This document shows positions 6,703 through 35,140 of a stretch of 35,140 nucleotides of DNA, piece by piece (position 1 is the stretch's first letter; each line of letters opens with the position of its first letter). The stretch comes from Escherichia coli (GTDB lineage Bacteria > Pseudomonadota > Gammaproteobacteria > Enterobacterales > Enterobacteriaceae): assembly GCF_003334405.1 (NCBI RefSeq), contig NZ_QOWM01000027.1. One strand, 5' to 3'. The translations under genes and the position numbers were made by a program. The notes under the pieces are model-generated. The model made no database searches, was not told the DNA's origin, and saw only the letters and a list, made by a program, of their open reading frames with translations.

Positions 6703-7536
6703 ATGCAGAACAATGAGCAGACGGAATACAAAACCGTGCGCGGCTTAACCCGCGGTCTAATGTTATTAAATATGTTAAATAAACTTGATGGCGGTGCCAG
6801 CGTCGGGCTGCTGGCGGAACTCAGCGGCCTGCATCGCACCACTGTGCGGCGACTGCTGGAGACGCTGCAGGAAGAGGGATATGTCCGCCGTAGCCCCTCC
6901 GATGATAGTTTTCGACTGACCATCAAAGTGCGGCAATTAAGCGAAGGATTTCGTGACGAACAGTGGATTTCTGCACGGGCCGCCCCACTGCTGGGCGATC
7001 TGTTGCGCGAAGTGGTATGGCCGACAGATGTGTCCACGCTGGATGTTGATGCAATGGTGGTACGCGAAACCACTCACCGTTTCAGCCGCTTATCCTTTCA
7101 CCGGGCAATGGTCGGGCGACGTTTGCCGCTTCTGAAAACCGCCTCGGGCCTGACCTGGCTGGCCTTTTGCCCGGAACAAGACCGCAAGGAATTAATCGAA
7201 ATGTTAGCCTCCCGCCCCGGTGATGACTATCAACTGGCACGGGAACCGTTAAAGCTGGAAGCCATTCTGGCGCGCGCGCGCAAAGAGGGTTACGGACAGA
7301 ACTACCGCGGCTGGGATCAGGAGGAGAAGATCGCCTCTATCGCCGTACCGCTGCGCAGTGAACAACGGGTGATTGGCTGTCTGAATCTGGTGTATATGGC
7401 GAGCGCAATGACCATTGAACAGGCAGCGGAAAAGCATCTTCCGGCGCTACAACGGGTAGCAAAACAGATCGAAGAAGGGGTTGAATCGCAGGCTATTCTG
7501 GTGGCCGGAAGGCGAAGCGGCATGCATTTACGTTGA
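6703..7536 (+). CDS. mhpR: IclR-family transcriptional activator of the mhp operon
   Basis: ORF-track entry starts at 6589 (315 aa) but the recognised 277-aa protein begins MQNNEQTEYKTVRGLTRG at ATG 6703; the longer ORF would read through the MhpR operator. Confidence 0.88.
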   Translation: MQNNEQTEYKTVRGLTRGLMLLNMLNKLDGGASVGLLAELSGLHRTTVRRLLETLQEEGYVRRSPSDDSFRLTIKVRQLSEGFRDEQWISARAAPLLGDLLREVVWPTDVSTLDVDAMVVRETTHRFSRLSFHRAMVGRRLPLLKTASGLTWLAFCPEQDRKELIEMLASRPGDDYQLAREPLKLEAILARARKEGYGQNYRGWDQEEKIASIAVPLRSEQRVIGCLNLVYMASAMTIEQAAEKHLPALQRVAKQIEEGVESQAILVAGRRSGMHLR

Positions 7537-8773: not shown

Positions 8774-8779
8774 GTGTGA

Positions 8780-16432: not shown

Positions 16433-17332
16433 ATGCTCTCTCGACATATCAATTATTTTCTTGCCGTGGCTGAACATGGCAGCTTCACCCGTGCCGCCAG
16501 TGCGTTGCACGTCTCCCAACCTGCGCTTTCCCAGCAGATTCGCCAGTTAGAGGAGAGTTTAGGCGTGCCGCTGTTTGACCGTAGCGGGCGAACGATTCGT
16601 CTCACTGATGCAGGAGAAGTCTGGCGACAGTACGCCAGCCGGGCGTTACAGGAACTGGGGGCGGGTAAACGGGCGATTCATGATGTTGCCGATCTGACGC
16701 GAGGATCGCTGCGTATCGCCGTCACCCCCACCTTTACGAGCTACTTTATCGGCCCCTTAATGGCGGATTTCTATGCGCGCTATCCCAGCATCACGCTCCA
16801 GCTACAGGAAATGTCGCAGGAGAAAATCGAGGATATGCTTTGCCGCGACGAGTTGGACGTTGGGATTGCCTTCGCGCCTGTGCATTCGCCGGAGCTGGAG
16901 GCAATTCCTTTACTGACAGAAAGTTTAGCGTTAGTCGTGGCGCAACATCATCCGCTGGCCGTCCATGAACAGGTGGCGTTGAGTCGCTTGCATGATGAAA
17001 AACTGGTCCTGCTCAGCGCGGAATTTGCCACCAGAGAGCAAATTGACCACTACTGCGAGAAAGCGGGGCTACATCCACAGGTGGTCATTGAGGCGAACTC
17101 AATTAGCGCGGTTCTGGAGCTGATTCGCCGCACTTCCCTTTCCACATTGTTACCAGCAGCGATTGCCACACAACATGACGGGCTTAAAGCTATTTCTCTT
17201 GCCCCGCCACTACTGGAGAGAACGGCGGTTTTGTTGCGGCGGAAAAATAGCTGGCAGACAGCCGCCGCGAAGGCATTTTTGCACATGGCGTTGGATAAAT
17301 GCGCGGTTGTTGGCGGAAATGAATCACGGTAG
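16433..17332 (+). CDS. cynR: LysR-family transcriptional activator of the cyn operon
   Basis: Recognised 299-aa protein starts [41 protein letters not shown] (HTH) at ATG 16433; ORF-track entry is over-extended to 16349; divergent from cynT. Confidence 0.9.
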
Positions 17333-17848
17333 CCGCTGACACAGGTCTGCGGCTGGAATTGCCTGATGCGCTACGCTTATCAGGCCTACGAGTTCAGTGC
17401 TCTACGTAGGCCGGATAAGGCGTTCACGCCGCATCCGGCATAAACTACAGCTGGCAGACAGCCGCTGCGAAGGCATTTTTGCACATGGCGTTGGAGGAAT
17501 GCGCGGTTGTTGGCGGGAATGAATCACGGTAGCCGCTGACACAGATCAGCGGCTGGAATTGCCTGATGCGCTACGCTTATCAGGCCTACGAGTTCAGTGC
17601 TCTACGTAGGCCGGATAAGGCGTTCACGCCGCATCCGGCATAAACTACAGCTGGCAGACAGCCGCTGCGAAGGCATTTTTGCACATGGCGTTGGAGGAAT
17701 GCGCGGTTGTTGGCGGGAATGAATCACGGTAGCCGCTGACACAGATCAGCGGCTGGAATTGCCTGATGCGCTACGCTTATCAGGCCTACGAGTTCAGTGC
17801 TCTACGTAGGCCGGATAAGGCGTTCACGCCGCATCCGGCATAAACTAA
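17249..17848. repeat. Three tandem 200-bp repeat units, each = last ~84 bp of cynR + a small hairpin + a REP pair
   Basis: ctggcagaca at 17251, 17451, 17651 and gaatcacggtagccgctgac at 17321, 17521, 17721 (period exactly 200). Units 2 and 3 are identical; unit 1 (the functional cynR 3' end) differs at ~7 positions. Confidence 0.9.
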
Positions 17849-17868
17849 GCTCGCTGTAACCCAGTCGT

Positions 17869-20553: not shown

Positions 20554-20632
20554 GTAGGCCTGATAAGACGCGTCAGCGTCGCATCAGGCATCGGCACACA
20601 GTGCCGGATGCACCGCGCGACGCATCCGACAA
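20554..20632. repeat. REP pair between prpE 3' end and the codB promoter
   Basis: gtaggcctgataagacgcgtcagcgtcgcatcaggc ... gccggatgcaccgcgcgacgcatccgac, abutting the prpE stop codon. Confidence 0.8.
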
Positions 20633-20636
20633 TAAC

Positions 20637-22522
20637 CTACTCTTCCATCGCCTGGCGGATCTGATCCAACGACGCAGGATCATCAATGGTCGTCAGATCT
20701 CCAGGATCGCGTCCTTCGCAAATCGCCTGGATCGTGCGGCGCAGCATTTTTCCGGATCGCGTTTTTGGCAATTGCGAGACAAACCAGACGTGCGCCGGGC
20801 GGCCAAAGTTGCCAATCTGGCTGTCCACCAGCGCCATAATCGCCTTCTCTTGCGAGTGCGCCACATCACGATCTTCCAGACTGTCGCTCTCTTTCGGAAT
20901 GACAAACGCCACCGCCACCTGCCCTTTCAGCGCATCTTTCACCCCAACCACCGCCACTTCGGCAACGCCCGGATGGCTGGAGATACTCTCTTCAATCTCG
21001 CGCGTCCCCAGCCGATGCCCGGCAACGTTAATTACATCGTCAGTGCGCCCGAGAATAAAGTGATAACCGTCAGCGTCACGGATGCCCCAGTCAAAGGTGG
21101 CGTACACCGGGCGGGAAAACAGCGACCAGTAAGTCTTCACAAAGCGGCCGTCGTCGCCCCAGATGGTCTGAATACACCCCGGCGGCAGCGGCCCTTCCAC
21201 CACCAGCATCCCTTTCTCGTTGACGCCACACGGTTCGCCGGTGACTTCATTAAGCAACTGCACGTTATAGCCATACATCGGCACACCGGGGCTTCCCAGA
21301 CGCGTCGGCCTGTCGTCCAGACCGCGAGCAATCGCCATAATCGGCCAGCCGGATTCGGTCTGCCAGTAGTTGTCGATGACCGGCACATCCAGCGTATTGC
21401 TCACCCAACTGGCGGTCGGCTCGTCCAGCGGTTCTCCAGCCAGATAGAGCACTTCCAGCGACGAGAGATCGTGTTTGCGAATTTCAGCGGTAGGGAATTT
21501 TTTCAGCACGCGAATGGCGGTCGGCGCTGAGAACATCCGGCTAACCTGATATTTCTCGACGATTTTCCACCACACGCCGCAGTCCGGCCAGGTCGGCAAT
21601 CCTTCGTAAACGATAGTCGCCATCCCCGCCAGCAGCGGCGCGTAAACGATATACGAATGCCCCACCACCCAGCCGATATCCGATGCGCAAAAGAACACGC
21701 TGCCCGCTTTGCCGCCAAAAATGGTGTCCATCGAGGTCGCCAGCGCCACCGCATATCCGCCGACGTCACGCTGCACGCCTTTAGGTTTGCCGGTCGTGCC
21801 GGAAGTGTAGAGAATGCAGGAGGTTTCGTTGGATTCCAGCCACGCCACCGGTACCCGCGCGCCGATGTGTTGATGGCGCAACGACGCGAAATCGACATCC
21901 CGCCCGCTGACGCGCGCCATTTTCGCCAGCCCGCGATCCACCAGCAAAACATGGCGTGGCTGGTGCTGCGCCTGACTTATCGCATCGTCGAGCAATTTTT
22001 ATAGGGAATGATTTTGCCACCGCGCGCTCCGGCATCAGCCGAGACAATCAGCACCGGTTTAGCGTCATCAATTCGCGCCGCCACGCTGTGCGAGGCAAAT
22101 CCACCAAACACCACCGAGTGAATAGCGCCAATGCGCGCGCAGGCCAGCAGAGTAATATGCGCTTCGGCAATCATCGGCATATACACCAGCACCCGATCGC
22201 CGCGCTGCACACCCAATGAACGCAACATTGAGGCCACCGCGTTCACTTCGTCATGCAGCTGACGAAAGGTAAAGGTGCGCTCTTCTTCTGTTTCCGAAGA
22301 GACGGCAATCAGCGCCAGCGCCTCTGGCTGTTTCTCCAGCCAGCGGTCGATGGCGTTGTGGCACAAGTTGGTTCGGCCTTCACAAAACCAACGGGCAAAC
22401 GGCGGATTGCTGTGATCGAGCGTTTGCGTAAAGGGCGTCTGCCAGTCAATACGCCGGGCCTGCTCGGCCCAGAACTGCTCCGGTTCGTTAATCGAACGCT
22501 GATAAAATTCGCTAAAAGACAT
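20637..22522 (-). pseudogene. prpE: Propionyl-CoA synthetase gene interrupted by a frameshift (two ORFs: 21977..22522 and 20637..21995)
   Basis: N-terminal ORF MSFSEFYQRSINEPEQFWAEQARR... ends ...GGKIIPYKNCSTMR-stop; the downstream ORF continues LDDAISQAQHQPRHVLLVDRG... with the AMP-binding motif YTSGTTGKPKG. The frames differ by one nucleotide at an A5 run (T5 at 21996..22000 on +). Confidence 0.8.
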
Positions 22523-24046: not shown

Positions 24047-25216
24047 TTACTGGCGCTTATCCAGCGCGACAAACGGGCGGTCTTCCGGTCCAACATAATT
24101 GGCGGAAGGACGGATAATTTTGTTGTCCTGACGTTGTTCGATAATGTGCGCCGCCCAGCCGGTGACGCGGGCGATAACAAACAGTGGTGTGAACATCTCG
24201 GTGGGAACGCCCATCATGTTGTAGGAAACAGCAGAGAACCAGTCGAGATTGGGGAACATCTTTTTGCTCTCCCACATCACCGTTTCCAGGCGATCGGCGA
24301 TGTTGTACATCTTCAGCGAGCCGCCTTCCTGCGAGAGCTGCTTCGCCACACGTTTAATCACCTGGTGGCGCGGGTCAGCGATGGTGTAAACCGGATGACC
24401 AAAACCAATGACCACTTCTTTGTTTTCCACGCGCTTGCGGATATCTGCTTCGGCTTCGTCCGGCGTTTCGTAGCGTTGCTGGATCTCCAGCGACACTTCA
24501 TTCGCCCCGCCGTGTTTTGGCCCGCGCAGTGCGCCAATCGCGCCAATAATCGCGGAATACATATCAGAGCCGGTGCCCGCAATCACCCGACTGGTAAAGG
24601 TGGAGGCGTTAAACTCGTGTTCGGCGTACAGCACCAGCGAGATATGCATCGCCTTTTCCCAGCTTTGCGATGGCTTTTCGCCGTGCAGCAGATGCAGGAA
24701 GTGACCGCCGATGGAGTCGTCATCGGTTTCCGGTTGGATGCGTTCGCCGTTGTGGCTGTAGTGATACCAATAAAGGAGAATCGAGCTAAGCGACGCCAGC
24801 AGTTTGTCGGCAATATCCCGCGCGCCAGAGACGGTATGCCCCTCTTTTTCTGGCAGCGTGCAGCCGAGCGCGGAAACACCGGTGCGCATAACATCCATCG
24901 GGTGCGACGCCGCCGGTAAGGCTTCCAGCACGGTACGCACGTTAGCCGGTAAACCGCGCAGGGCTTTCAGTTTCGTTTTGTAAGCGGCGAGTTCGTCACG
25001 GGTCGGCAGTTTGCCGTGGATCAGCAGATGCGCCACTTCTTCAAATTCGCAATGTTTCGCCAGATCAAGAATATCGTAGCCGCGGTAATGCAGGTCATTG
25101 CCACTTTTACCCACGGTGCAGAGCGCCGTATTGCCCGCCGGAACGCCAGAAAGTGCCACAGATTTTTTCGGTTTAATGACATGGGTACTGTTTTGCAGGA
25201 TCGTTGTGTCGCTCAT
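24047..25216 (-). CDS. prpC: 2-methylcitrate synthase
   Basis: 389-aa [56 protein letters not shown]..., citrate-synthase family. Confidence 0.95.
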
Positions 25217-25257
25217 GTTGTCCTCGTCATTGTTATCATTTGTAGGGTCGAGATTGT

Positions 25258-25536
25258 TGTCGGATGCGACGCTATGCGTCTTATCCGACCTACAGTTCAG
25301 TTCACCCCGTAGGCCTGATAAGTCGCGTCAGCGGCGCATCAGGCATCGGTTGTCGGATGCGACGCTATGCGTCTTATCCGACCTACAGTTCAGTGCACCC
25401 CGTAGGCCTGATAAGTCACGTCAGCGGCGCATCAGGCATCGGTTGTCGGATGCGACGCCATCCGTCTTATCCGACCTACAGTTCAGTGCACCTCGTAGGC
25501 CTGATAAGTCGCGTCAGCGACGCATCAGGCATCGGC
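25258..25536. repeat. REP/BIME array: three tandem 93-bp units in the prpC-prpB spacer
   Basis: tgtcggatgcgacgc at 25258, 25351, 25444; each unit carries two REP palindromes (ggatgcgacgctatgcgtcttatccgacctac / gtaggcctgataagtcgcgtcagcggcgcatcaggc); units differ at a few positions. Confidence 0.9.
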
Positions 25537-25562
25537 TGTCGAATACAATCAACGGGCGTTTT

Positions 25563-26453
25563 TTATTTCACCTGGCTACGGGCAAACAGGTTGTCGAGCT
25601 TCTCTTCGTACTGGTAGTAGTTGATGCTTTCGTACAGCTCGTTGCGGGTCTGCATGGTGTCGATGACGCTTTTCTGCGTGCCTTCCTGGCGCAGGACGTT
25701 GTAGACATGTTCAGCGGCGCGGTTCATGGCGCGGAACGCTGAAAGTGGGTACAGCGCCATTGCGACATGGGCGCTGCGTAATTCGTCGGTGGTAAACAGC
25801 GGCGTGGCACCAAATTCGGTGATGTTGGCGAGGATCGGCACCTGCACCGCATCGGCAAACTGGCGGTACATGGCGAGTTCGGTAATCGCCTCCGGGAACA
25901 ACATCTCGGCACCCGCTTCAACATAGGCCTGCGCACGCTCGATCGCCGCATCCAGCCCCTCTACCGCCAGAGCATCGGTGCGCGCCATGATCACAAAATC
26001 AGGATCGGTTTTCGCATCCACCGCCGCGCGGATCCGATCCACCATCTCTTCTTTCGAGACGATCGCTTTATTCGGACGATGACCGCAGCGTTTCGCACCA
26101 ACCTGATCTTCAATATGCAATCCTGCCGCACCGGCTTTAATCATCGATTTCACGGTGCGCGCCACGTTAAAGGCCGAAGAACCAAAACCGATATCCGCAT
26201 CCACCAGCAGCGGCAGCGAACAAACGTCGGTGATACGGCGAATGTCGGTCAGCACATCATCAAGGGTAGAAATACCGAGATCGGGCAGCCCCAGCGAACC
26301 TGCCGCCACGCCACCGCCAGAAAGATAAATTGCCTGATATCCGGCACGCTGCGCCAACAGCGCATGATTAGCGTTGATGGTGCCAACAATCTGCAATGGA
26401 TTTTCTTTAGTCAGTGCAGCGCGAAACGCTTTACCTGGAGAGTGTAGAGACAT
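25563..26453 (-). CDS. prpB: 2-methylisocitrate lyase
   Basis: 296-aa [63 protein letters not shown]..., PEP-mutase/isocitrate-lyase family. Confidence 0.95.
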
Positions 26454-26500
26454 AGCCCATCCTTTGTTATCAACTTGTTATTTGCGTTGATAAAGACAAA

Positions 26501-35020: not shown

Positions 35021-35140
35021 GCCTGATGCGCTACGCTTATCAGGCCTACAATTCTCGCGCCACTCGTAGGCCGGATAAGGCGTTCACGCCGCATCCGGCA
35101 ATGGTGACAAATGCCTGATGCGCTACGCTTATCAGGCCTA
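35021..35140. repeat. REP elements upstream of yahI (run off the window end)
   Basis: gcctgatgcgctacgcttatcaggcctac ... gtaggccggataaggcgttcacgccgcatccggc ... gcctgatgcgctacgcttatcaggccta. Confidence 0.85.

Follow-up and report, generated by a model that had tools for sequence, protein, structure and literature searches.

Within the prpBCDE operon of Escherichia coli, which is driven by sigma-54, the untranslated stretch separating prpB from prpC contains a tandem repeat array that is one unit shorter in the DNA studied here than in the reference strain MG1655. The stretch that we analysed (hereafter the window, 35,140 nucleotides in total) carries three units of 93 bp at this position. The array is a BIME-2, a class of paired and inverted REP sequences, and corresponds to the feature named REP25 in the MG1655 annotation (349606-349970; supplement of bioRxiv 10.64898/2026.03.23.713779). 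Its three-unit state is a common allele among E. coli genomes and no peculiarity of the window. The account that probably fits best joins three elements: the identity of the feature as REP25, an origin through stepwise gain and loss of 93-bp units, and a role at the level of RNA. For the last of these, a dual action as an exonuclease barrier and a leaky attenuator, we put the chances slightly above even, largely by analogy with a better-studied array.

Much of this background is already published, including the repeat family itself, the variability of BIMEs, their variability at this locus, the nuisance that the repeat poses to assemblers, and a proposed post-transcriptional role. Our additions are a rough census of alleles and the finding that assemblies labelled as K-12 carry between two and four units.

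Anatomy of the array

Tandem Repeats Finder returns a single array at positions 25256-25541, with a period of 93 bp, 3.1 copies, 95% matches, no indels and a score of 523. A repeat search places the in-register copies at 25256, 25349 and 25442, the second and third being 98% and 93% identical to the first. Both flanking genes are on the minus strand. Upstream in the prpBCDE transcript is prpB (2-methylisocitrate lyase; 25563..26453), a 296-aa ORF supported by the RefSeq annotation of identical DNA, with its stop codon at 25563-25565. Downstream is prpC (2-methylcitrate synthase; 24047..25216), a 389-aa ORF that is likewise annotated in RefSeq. With prpC bordering it at 25216 and prpB at 25563, the intergenic spacer spans 25217-25562 on the minus strand and measures 346 bp. 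The array takes up 286 bp of it (83%).

The three units can be told apart. The prpC-proximal unit (25256-25348), defined by the repeat search and by alignment, carries a 'GTGAAC' linker variant (in transcript sense) that is also present in single-unit alleles. It is followed by the middle unit (25349-25441), placed by alignment, and by the prpB-proximal unit (25442-25534), which the repeat search identifies as the most diverged copy, with 93% identity to the first. At the prpB-side edge, a degenerate remnant of a y-REP arm (TGTCGAAT...; 25537-25552) is visible in the sequence and is the source of the additional 0.1 copy counted by Tandem Repeats Finder.

A motif scan detects six REPs in the spacer, three of the z2 type and three of the y type, alternating three times. 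The y-type REPs, each 36 nt long and following the pattern GTAGGTCGGATAAGACGCATAGCGTCGCATCCGACA, have their GTAG on the minus strand at 25293, 25386 and 25479, and occupy 25258-25293, 25351-25386 and 25444-25479. The z2-type REPs, each 37 nt long (the z2 length given in PMC8266576) and following the pattern GTAGGCCTGATAAGTCGCGTCAGCGGCGCATCAGGCA, have their GTAG on the plus strand at 25309, 25402 and 25495, and occupy 25309-25345, 25402-25438 and 25495-25531; the last of these is the first hairpin that the transcript would meet. REPs that face each other tail to tail are separated by linkers of 15 nt, and those that face head to head by linkers of 5 nt. On the transcript, 31 nt separate the prpB stop codon from the first REP, and 41 nt remain between the last REP and the prpC AUG. 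This final stretch (25217-25257, minus strand) forms an unstructured leader in which prpC keeps its own GAGGA Shine-Dalgarno sequence. Across the whole 35-kb window, the same scan yields 21 REP matches.

A first-pass annotation of the window, made from the letters alone, had described REP/BIME repeats in three 93-bp units, each with two inverted REP palindromes, that filled most of a 346-bp spacer. The motif scan, Tandem Repeats Finder and the repeat search bear out this description in full: six REPs in alternating z2 (plus) and y (minus) orientation, three in-register copies at 93 x 3.1, and an occupancy of 286 bp.

Class of the repeat

REPs of the y, z1 and z2 types are 35, 29 and 37 nt long, respectively, and have in common an AA/GC bulge and a GTAG at the 5′ end (PMC8266576). 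The GTAG is regarded as the conserved REP tag, and genome-wide counts in the literature show that genomes hold many REP copies (PMC3333891). All six elements of the prp array have GTAGG at their 5′ foot. Their stems (GGATAAG...CGCATCC and TGATAAG...GCATCA) retain the mid-stem AA opposite GC, at lengths of 36 and 37 nt. All are extragenic, lying wholly within the 346-bp spacer, and there are multiple such elements in the window. At 36 nt, the y REP of the prp array is a variant whose stem changes are compensated (GTCGGAT...ATCCGAC).

By definition, a BIME-2 combines y and z2 REPs with short linkers in multiple tandem copies, whereas a BIME-1 combines y and z1 REPs in a single copy, with a long L linker that contains an IHF site (PMC3333891). 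The prp array exhibits inverted y/z2 alternation, short linkers, and tandem copies that vary in number between strains. A search of 25217-25562 for the IHF consensus WATCAANNNNTTR gave no match. Because a 37-nt z2 REP is paired with a 36-nt y variant, because the linkers are 15 and 5 nt, and because the spacer has no IHF consensus, the array is a BIME-2. A BIME-1 (RIB/RIP) resembles it in consisting of paired inverted REPs in an intergenic region, but is ruled out by the z2-length partner, the tandem copies, the short linkers and the spacer without an IHF consensus. Elsewhere, a match to this consensus (TATCAACTTGTTA) is found at 26468-26480 (plus strand), in the divergent promoter region between prpR and prpB, in keeping with a sigma-54, IHF-assisted promoter for prpBCDE.

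The Rfam model RF02564 (naRNA4) matches every unit, with a best score of 63.1 bits (25312-25383, minus strand) and scores of 57.7 and 35.1 for the others, the gathering threshold being 59.5. Since this model was built from the BIME-2 array REP325, the matches indicate membership of a shared repeat family, not a function as nucleoid-associated RNA. The inverted REP doublet architecture associated with REPIN/RAYT systems is also present, with the position of rayT falling outside the window (MG1655 247637-248134).

Comparison with MG1655

In MG1655 (NC_000913.3), prpB occupies 348682-349572 and prpC begins at 350012, which leaves a spacer of 439 bp with four units; Tandem Repeats Finder counts 4.1 copies of the 93-bp unit. 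The spacers of W3110 and BW25113 also measure 439 bp. When the prp region is aligned, the window lacks exactly 93 bp relative to MG1655 and AB1157, and all other aligned columns are identical. The first-pass annotation had given a reference spacer of about 439 bp, or four units, had suspected that the window was one unit short, and had proposed alignment to the reference as the test. The reference coordinates and repeat count agree with these figures, and the alignment returns four units in MG1655, not three, with an exact 93-bp deletion in the window.

The REP25 array of MG1655 and that of the window therefore share the same position, flanks and unit sequence, with every aligned base identical, but differ in number: four units in 439 bp for MG1655, and three in 346 bp for the window, with one internal unit absent. 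The lost unit is bracketed by two unit-distinguishing bases, at window positions 25302 and 25418. As the units are identical in between, the junction can be placed no more finely than 25302-25418. The absent unit is the third MG1655 unit from prpB, or an equivalent recombinant.

Seven single-base differences from MG1655, at window positions 8779, 6977, 6981, 18466, 21565, 23339 and 28774, identify the source of the window as a close relative of MG1655 and not MG1655 itself. The change at 8779 lies at the edge of the lac promoter/operator (TGTGTGGAATTG to TGTGTGAAATTG in lacZ sense), and those at 6977 and 6981 fall in mhpR. Within prpE (minus strand; ORF 21977-22522), a run of six A residues in MG1655 is a run of five at window position 22000, and the resulting frameshift ends PrpE after 181 of 628 residues. 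Either propionyl-CoA synthetase is truly inactivated, or the homopolymer was misread in sequencing; a similar apparent prpE frameshift in another assembly has been reported as an error (PMC7360682).

Other REP-containing spacers in the window also differ from the reference. Between codA and cynR (17249-17851), a 200-bp unit, comprising a y+z1 REP doublet and about 120 bp of other sequence, is present in 3.0 copies, against 2.0 copies in MG1655 and GM4792, leaving the window 200 bp longer. The yahG-yahI spacer (35049-35100) holds a single y+z1 REP doublet and is 186 bp (two units) shorter than in MG1655, where a different 93-bp array (y+z1) reaches 3.9 copies and carries the dubious ORF yahH. 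GM4792 aligns unbroken to the window at this spacer and appears to share the short form. The prpE-codB spacer (REP26; 20554-20630) is 94 bp shorter than in MG1655. Finally, the mhpE-mhpT array (REP31; 1-201), a 101-bp y+z2 BIME with 4.4 copies in MG1655, is cut by the edge of the window. The arrays at codA-cynR, yahG-yahI and mhpE-mhpT resemble the prp array in being intergenic tandem REP doublets whose copy number differs from MG1655. They differ from it in their REP combinations or linkers and in their unit lengths, and most are situated between transcription units, not within an operon.

Alleles across Escherichia coli

Differences in BIME copy number between strains are textbook knowledge (PMC3333891), and length variation at the prp locus itself is likewise on record (PMC7360682, citing Simonte 2017). 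The 'prpB // prpC repeat' has also been named as a cause of contig breaks in the 454 assembly of K-12 NCM3722 (PMC3045373). To measure this variation, we used a synthetic query consisting of the two flanks and eight units, such that the flank-to-flank span gives the unit number. Because BLAST pieces get joined, we relied on a systematic sample, 60 of the 5,222 complete E. coli records that matched, and not on exact genome-wide allele counts; 59 records were scored, and one gave a partial match.

Within this sample, 23 of the 59 genomes have no unit at all, their 44-bp spacer being free of REPs. A further 16 carry a single unit, in a spacer of 159 bp (155 bp in O157:H7). Two units were seen in none of the 59, three in 5, four in 14, and five in 1, with a spacer of 532 bp. 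Two-unit alleles do occur, in at least 16 genomes recovered with a separate two-unit query. Representative alleles, when fetched and aligned, form a series of 0, 1, 2, 3, 4 and 5 units. At least one unit is present in 3,115 of the 5,222 records, and about 40% of E. coli genomes are without the array. The array is thus dispensable, and is not required for propionate catabolism.

An allele exactly like that of the window (100% identity over 801 bp) was recovered from at least 33 complete genomes, whose sources are pigs, cattle, humans and laboratory strains; approximately 8-10% of the sampled genomes have three units. Variation extends to assemblies that are labelled as K-12. Four units are present in MG1655, W3110, BW25113 and AB1157; three in GM4792 (NZ_CP011342.2), MG1655-pvir and OV2; and two in a sibling GM4792 assembly (NZ_CP011343.2) and S17-1. 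The accessions among those compared were NZ_CP011342.2, NZ_CP011343.2, NZ_CP169294.1, NZ_CP195020.1 and NZ_CP040667.1. Over 24 kb, MG1655-pvir is collinear with MG1655, with essentially only the one-unit difference between them. Disagreement of this kind reflects either change of the array on laboratory time scales or collapse of the repeat in some assemblies.

Origin of the length variation

Substitutions within the units retain a record of how the arrays were built. Four out of five units in UPEC69 share the motif 'GCGGCTT', and 'GTGCAC' is found in all K-12 units except the prpC-proximal one. In every genome examined, the prpC-proximal unit agrees with the single-unit alleles. Lineage-private substitutions that are shared among units point to local amplification after the lineages diverged. 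Taken together with the match between the prpC-proximal unit and the single-unit alleles, they argue for a single old insertion, after which local amplification took place independently.

We propose that a single REP doublet would have been inserted ancestrally, and that the array would then have grown and shrunk in 93-bp steps, lineage by lineage. The pattern of stepwise 93-bp gain and loss is evident in the aligned alleles. The underlying mechanism is likely to be slippage during replication, or unequal recombination, acting on direct repeats of 93 bp that are nearly identical. The REP-associated transposase TnpAREP/RayT is possibly a further contributor to changes in length.

Transcription and RNA structure across the spacer

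Both prpB and prpC are on the minus strand with no promoter-like or terminator-like site between them, and polycistronic transcription of prp has been stated (PMC7360682); the array accordingly sits between two co-transcribed genes of one operon, as would be expected of an intra-operon REP stabiliser or attenuator of the REP325 or malE-malF kind. No sigma-70-like promoter was found in the prpB-prpC spacer, and no intrinsic terminator (a GC-rich hairpin followed by a U-tract) on either strand between 24900 and 26800.

The transcript strand of the spacer is predicted to fold at -151 kcal/mol, with a z-score of -6.9 relative to shuffled sequences. Among 11 units from four genomes, 97% of cells are paired in the two-hairpin register, compared with 23-43% when the partners are slid. 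Covariation among 11 units from four genomes shows no excess over shuffles, a comparison that is uninformative at 97% identity between units. Conservation is concentrated in the hairpin stems, and substitutions fall mostly in linkers and loops.

Signals for Rho on the sense strand appear weak. The sense-strand C/G ratio is 0.8-1.0 across the array and rises to 1.5-1.7 only over the final 50 nt upstream of prpC; by this ratio, there is no rut-like (C-rich, G-poor) sense region within the array. In a published table of in-vitro Rho binding, REP25 is touched only by an antisense, NusG-dependent peak, with no peak on the sense strand (bioRxiv 10.64898/2026.03.23.713779). That peak, present with NusG only, spans MG1655 349966-350088 (approximately window 25140-25262, plus strand), is antisense to the start of prpC and reaches the edge of the array, where it could serve to end antisense transcription running from prpC into the repeats.

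Two further features of the spacer deserve mention. Regulation of translation by a REP near the stop codon was considered and set aside, as the first REP lies 31 nt past the prpB stop, while such a REP reportedly has to be no more than about 15 nt from the stop codon (a finding attributed to Liang, Rudd and Deutscher in 2015). Long ORFs also run across the array on the antisense strand (25264-25617, 25098-25742 and 25016-25312, all plus). ORFs inside the array, including that at 25264-25617 (plus strand, 117 aa), were treated as artefacts of the repeat. Some RefSeq genomes have a 'hypothetical protein' annotated at the array, and the gap in MG1655 locus tags at b0331/b0333 suggests a retired ORF call there.

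A possible role in prp expression

The closest analogue of the prp array is REP325 (naRNA1-6), located between yjdM and yjdN. Both are composed of tandem y+z2 doublets between co-oriented genes of one operon, and the Rfam model built from REP325 matches the prp units over the full length of the model. The two arrays differ in period and copy number (100 bp and 5.8 copies in REP325, 93 bp and 3 copies here), in the head-to-head linker (about 11 nt against 5 nt), and in the y REP, which is canonical in REP325 but a 36-nt variant with compensated stem changes in the prp array. The role of REP325, which stabilises upstream mRNA and attenuates in a partly Rho-dependent manner, has been established by experiment, whereas the prp array is known here from its sequence.

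Experimental work on REP325 (bioRxiv 10.64898/2026.03.23.713779) has shown that its deletion lowers the ratio of yjdM to yjdN RNA from roughly 35 to roughly 1, that the array stabilises the upstream mRNA and yields a ladder of truncated RNAs, and that bicyclomycin raises read-through from 23% to 39%. In the same study, fragments of REP325 with 2-4 hairpins were not Rho-sensitive and context dependence was stressed: REP effects are described there as highly context-dependent, without a uniform effect on half-life. At the prp locus, the reports are indirect: prpB is said to be induced more strongly than the downstream genes (Pobeguts et al., PMC7360682), and RNase R may target the prp repeats, as stated in PMC7360682 with reference to Simonte et al. 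2017. K-12 lacking RNase R gains the ability to use propionate under anoxic conditions (review, PMC10240344).

On the basis of the behaviour of REP325 and of these reports from the prp locus, we suggest that the array may have a dual role in RNA metabolism, as an exonuclease barrier for prpB RNA and as a leaky attenuator of prpCDE; this we hold to be marginally the likelier state of affairs. The first-pass annotation had raised an idea of this kind, an mRNA stabiliser or partial terminator within the operon that sets prpB apart from prpCDE in expression, and it agrees with what is published on REP325. The six REP hairpins would block 3′-to-5′ exonucleases, allowing prpB-containing decay intermediates to persist, and RNase R would be the enzyme able to clear these REP-protected intermediates. 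Together with the long untranslated gap, the hairpins would also cause a fraction of transcripts to end before prpC. The expected outcome would be an excess of prpB RNA over prpCDE RNA, with the size of the effect set by unit number. Attenuation may proceed through the uncoupling of transcription from translation, as in REP325, despite the non-rut-like character of the array. The non-rut-like C/G ratio and the antisense-only Rho peak are evidence against a strong Rho component. Since approximately 40% of genomes have a 44-bp spacer without any REP, any such function is optional, and the variation in length may be neutral.

Alternative explanations

That last point can be taken further. The array might be a selfish or neutral REP doublet, whose unit number drifts without meaningful effect on prp expression or fitness. 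We consider this a possible reading, though a rather doubtful one. Alleles with 0 to 5 units coexist, with some 40% of the 5,222 genomes lacking any unit, and K-12-labelled assemblies have 2, 3 or 4 units with no known phenotype. Four other REP-containing spacers in the 35-kb window differ in length from MG1655, in both directions, and the effects of REPs are reported to depend strongly on context, with no uniform influence on half-life. Against neutrality, REP325 strongly affects its operon, prpB is reported to be more induced than the genes downstream, and substitutions among the units fall mostly in linkers and loops, with the hairpin stems conserved. Neutral drift in unit number is, plausibly, partly compatible with our preferred explanation of stepwise change in an array that acts on RNA.

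A stronger form of the RNA-level role would make unit number a fast-mutating dial, quantitatively setting the prpB:prpCDE ratio and the sensitivity of the transcript to RNase R, with consequences for phenotype. We regard this as unlikely. Such a dial would turn on laboratory time scales, as the two to four units of K-12-labelled assemblies would suggest. If it did operate, it would contribute to differences between strains in propionate lag, in tolerance of 2-methylcitrate and 2-methylisocitrate, and in the anoxic propionate phenotype.

The array could instead act mainly as DNA, as a site of gyrase binding and cleavage or as a cruciform, HU or naRNA-type nucleoid element through which supercoiling near the prp operon is managed, which seems to us quite unlikely. 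BIME-2 arrays have been reported as in-vivo targets of gyrase cleavage (in the work of Espeli and Boccard 1997), the Rfam naRNA4 model matches each unit, and the perfect inverted arms are able to extrude cruciforms. However, a re-examination of REP325 found no role in nucleoid compaction, no REP-REP contacts and no stable HU-DNA-RNA complex (bioRxiv 10.64898/2026.03.23.713779), and strains without the array keep the same prp operon.

It is very improbable that the count of three arose in sequencing or assembly, through collapse of the repeat in a strain that truly has four units: the prpB-prpC repeat does break contigs in the 454 assembly of K-12 NCM3722 (PMC3045373), the A6-to-A5 homopolymer frameshift in the prpE of the window resembles a sequencing error, the sibling GM4792 assemblies disagree (3 versus 2 units), and MG1655-pvir differs from MG1655 over 24 kb by essentially one unit, but at least 33 complete genomes of unrelated origin share the identical three-unit allele, three-unit alleles account for about 8-10% of sampled genomes, the window has gained 200 bp at codA-cynR where collapse cannot yield a gain, and it differs from MG1655 by 7 SNPs, so that, the window not being MG1655, the MG1655 unit count is not the expectation.

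Implications

The finding is correct but ordinary, with little import beyond bookkeeping. In practical terms, the prpB-prpC spacer is a length-variable marker that varies even among K-12-labelled assemblies, and a difference in its length should therefore not be read as a strain-specific mutation. Nor is it safe to assume the reference spacer length when designing primers, judging assemblies or building prp-based expression constructs.

In a wider sense, the alleles with 0 to 5 units represent a natural allelic series within a defined operon, which could be used to examine the stabiliser-plus-attenuator model of REP arrays. The presence of four REP-containing spacers that differ from MG1655 within this single window also indicates that much of the divergence between closely related E. 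coli sits in BIME arrays.
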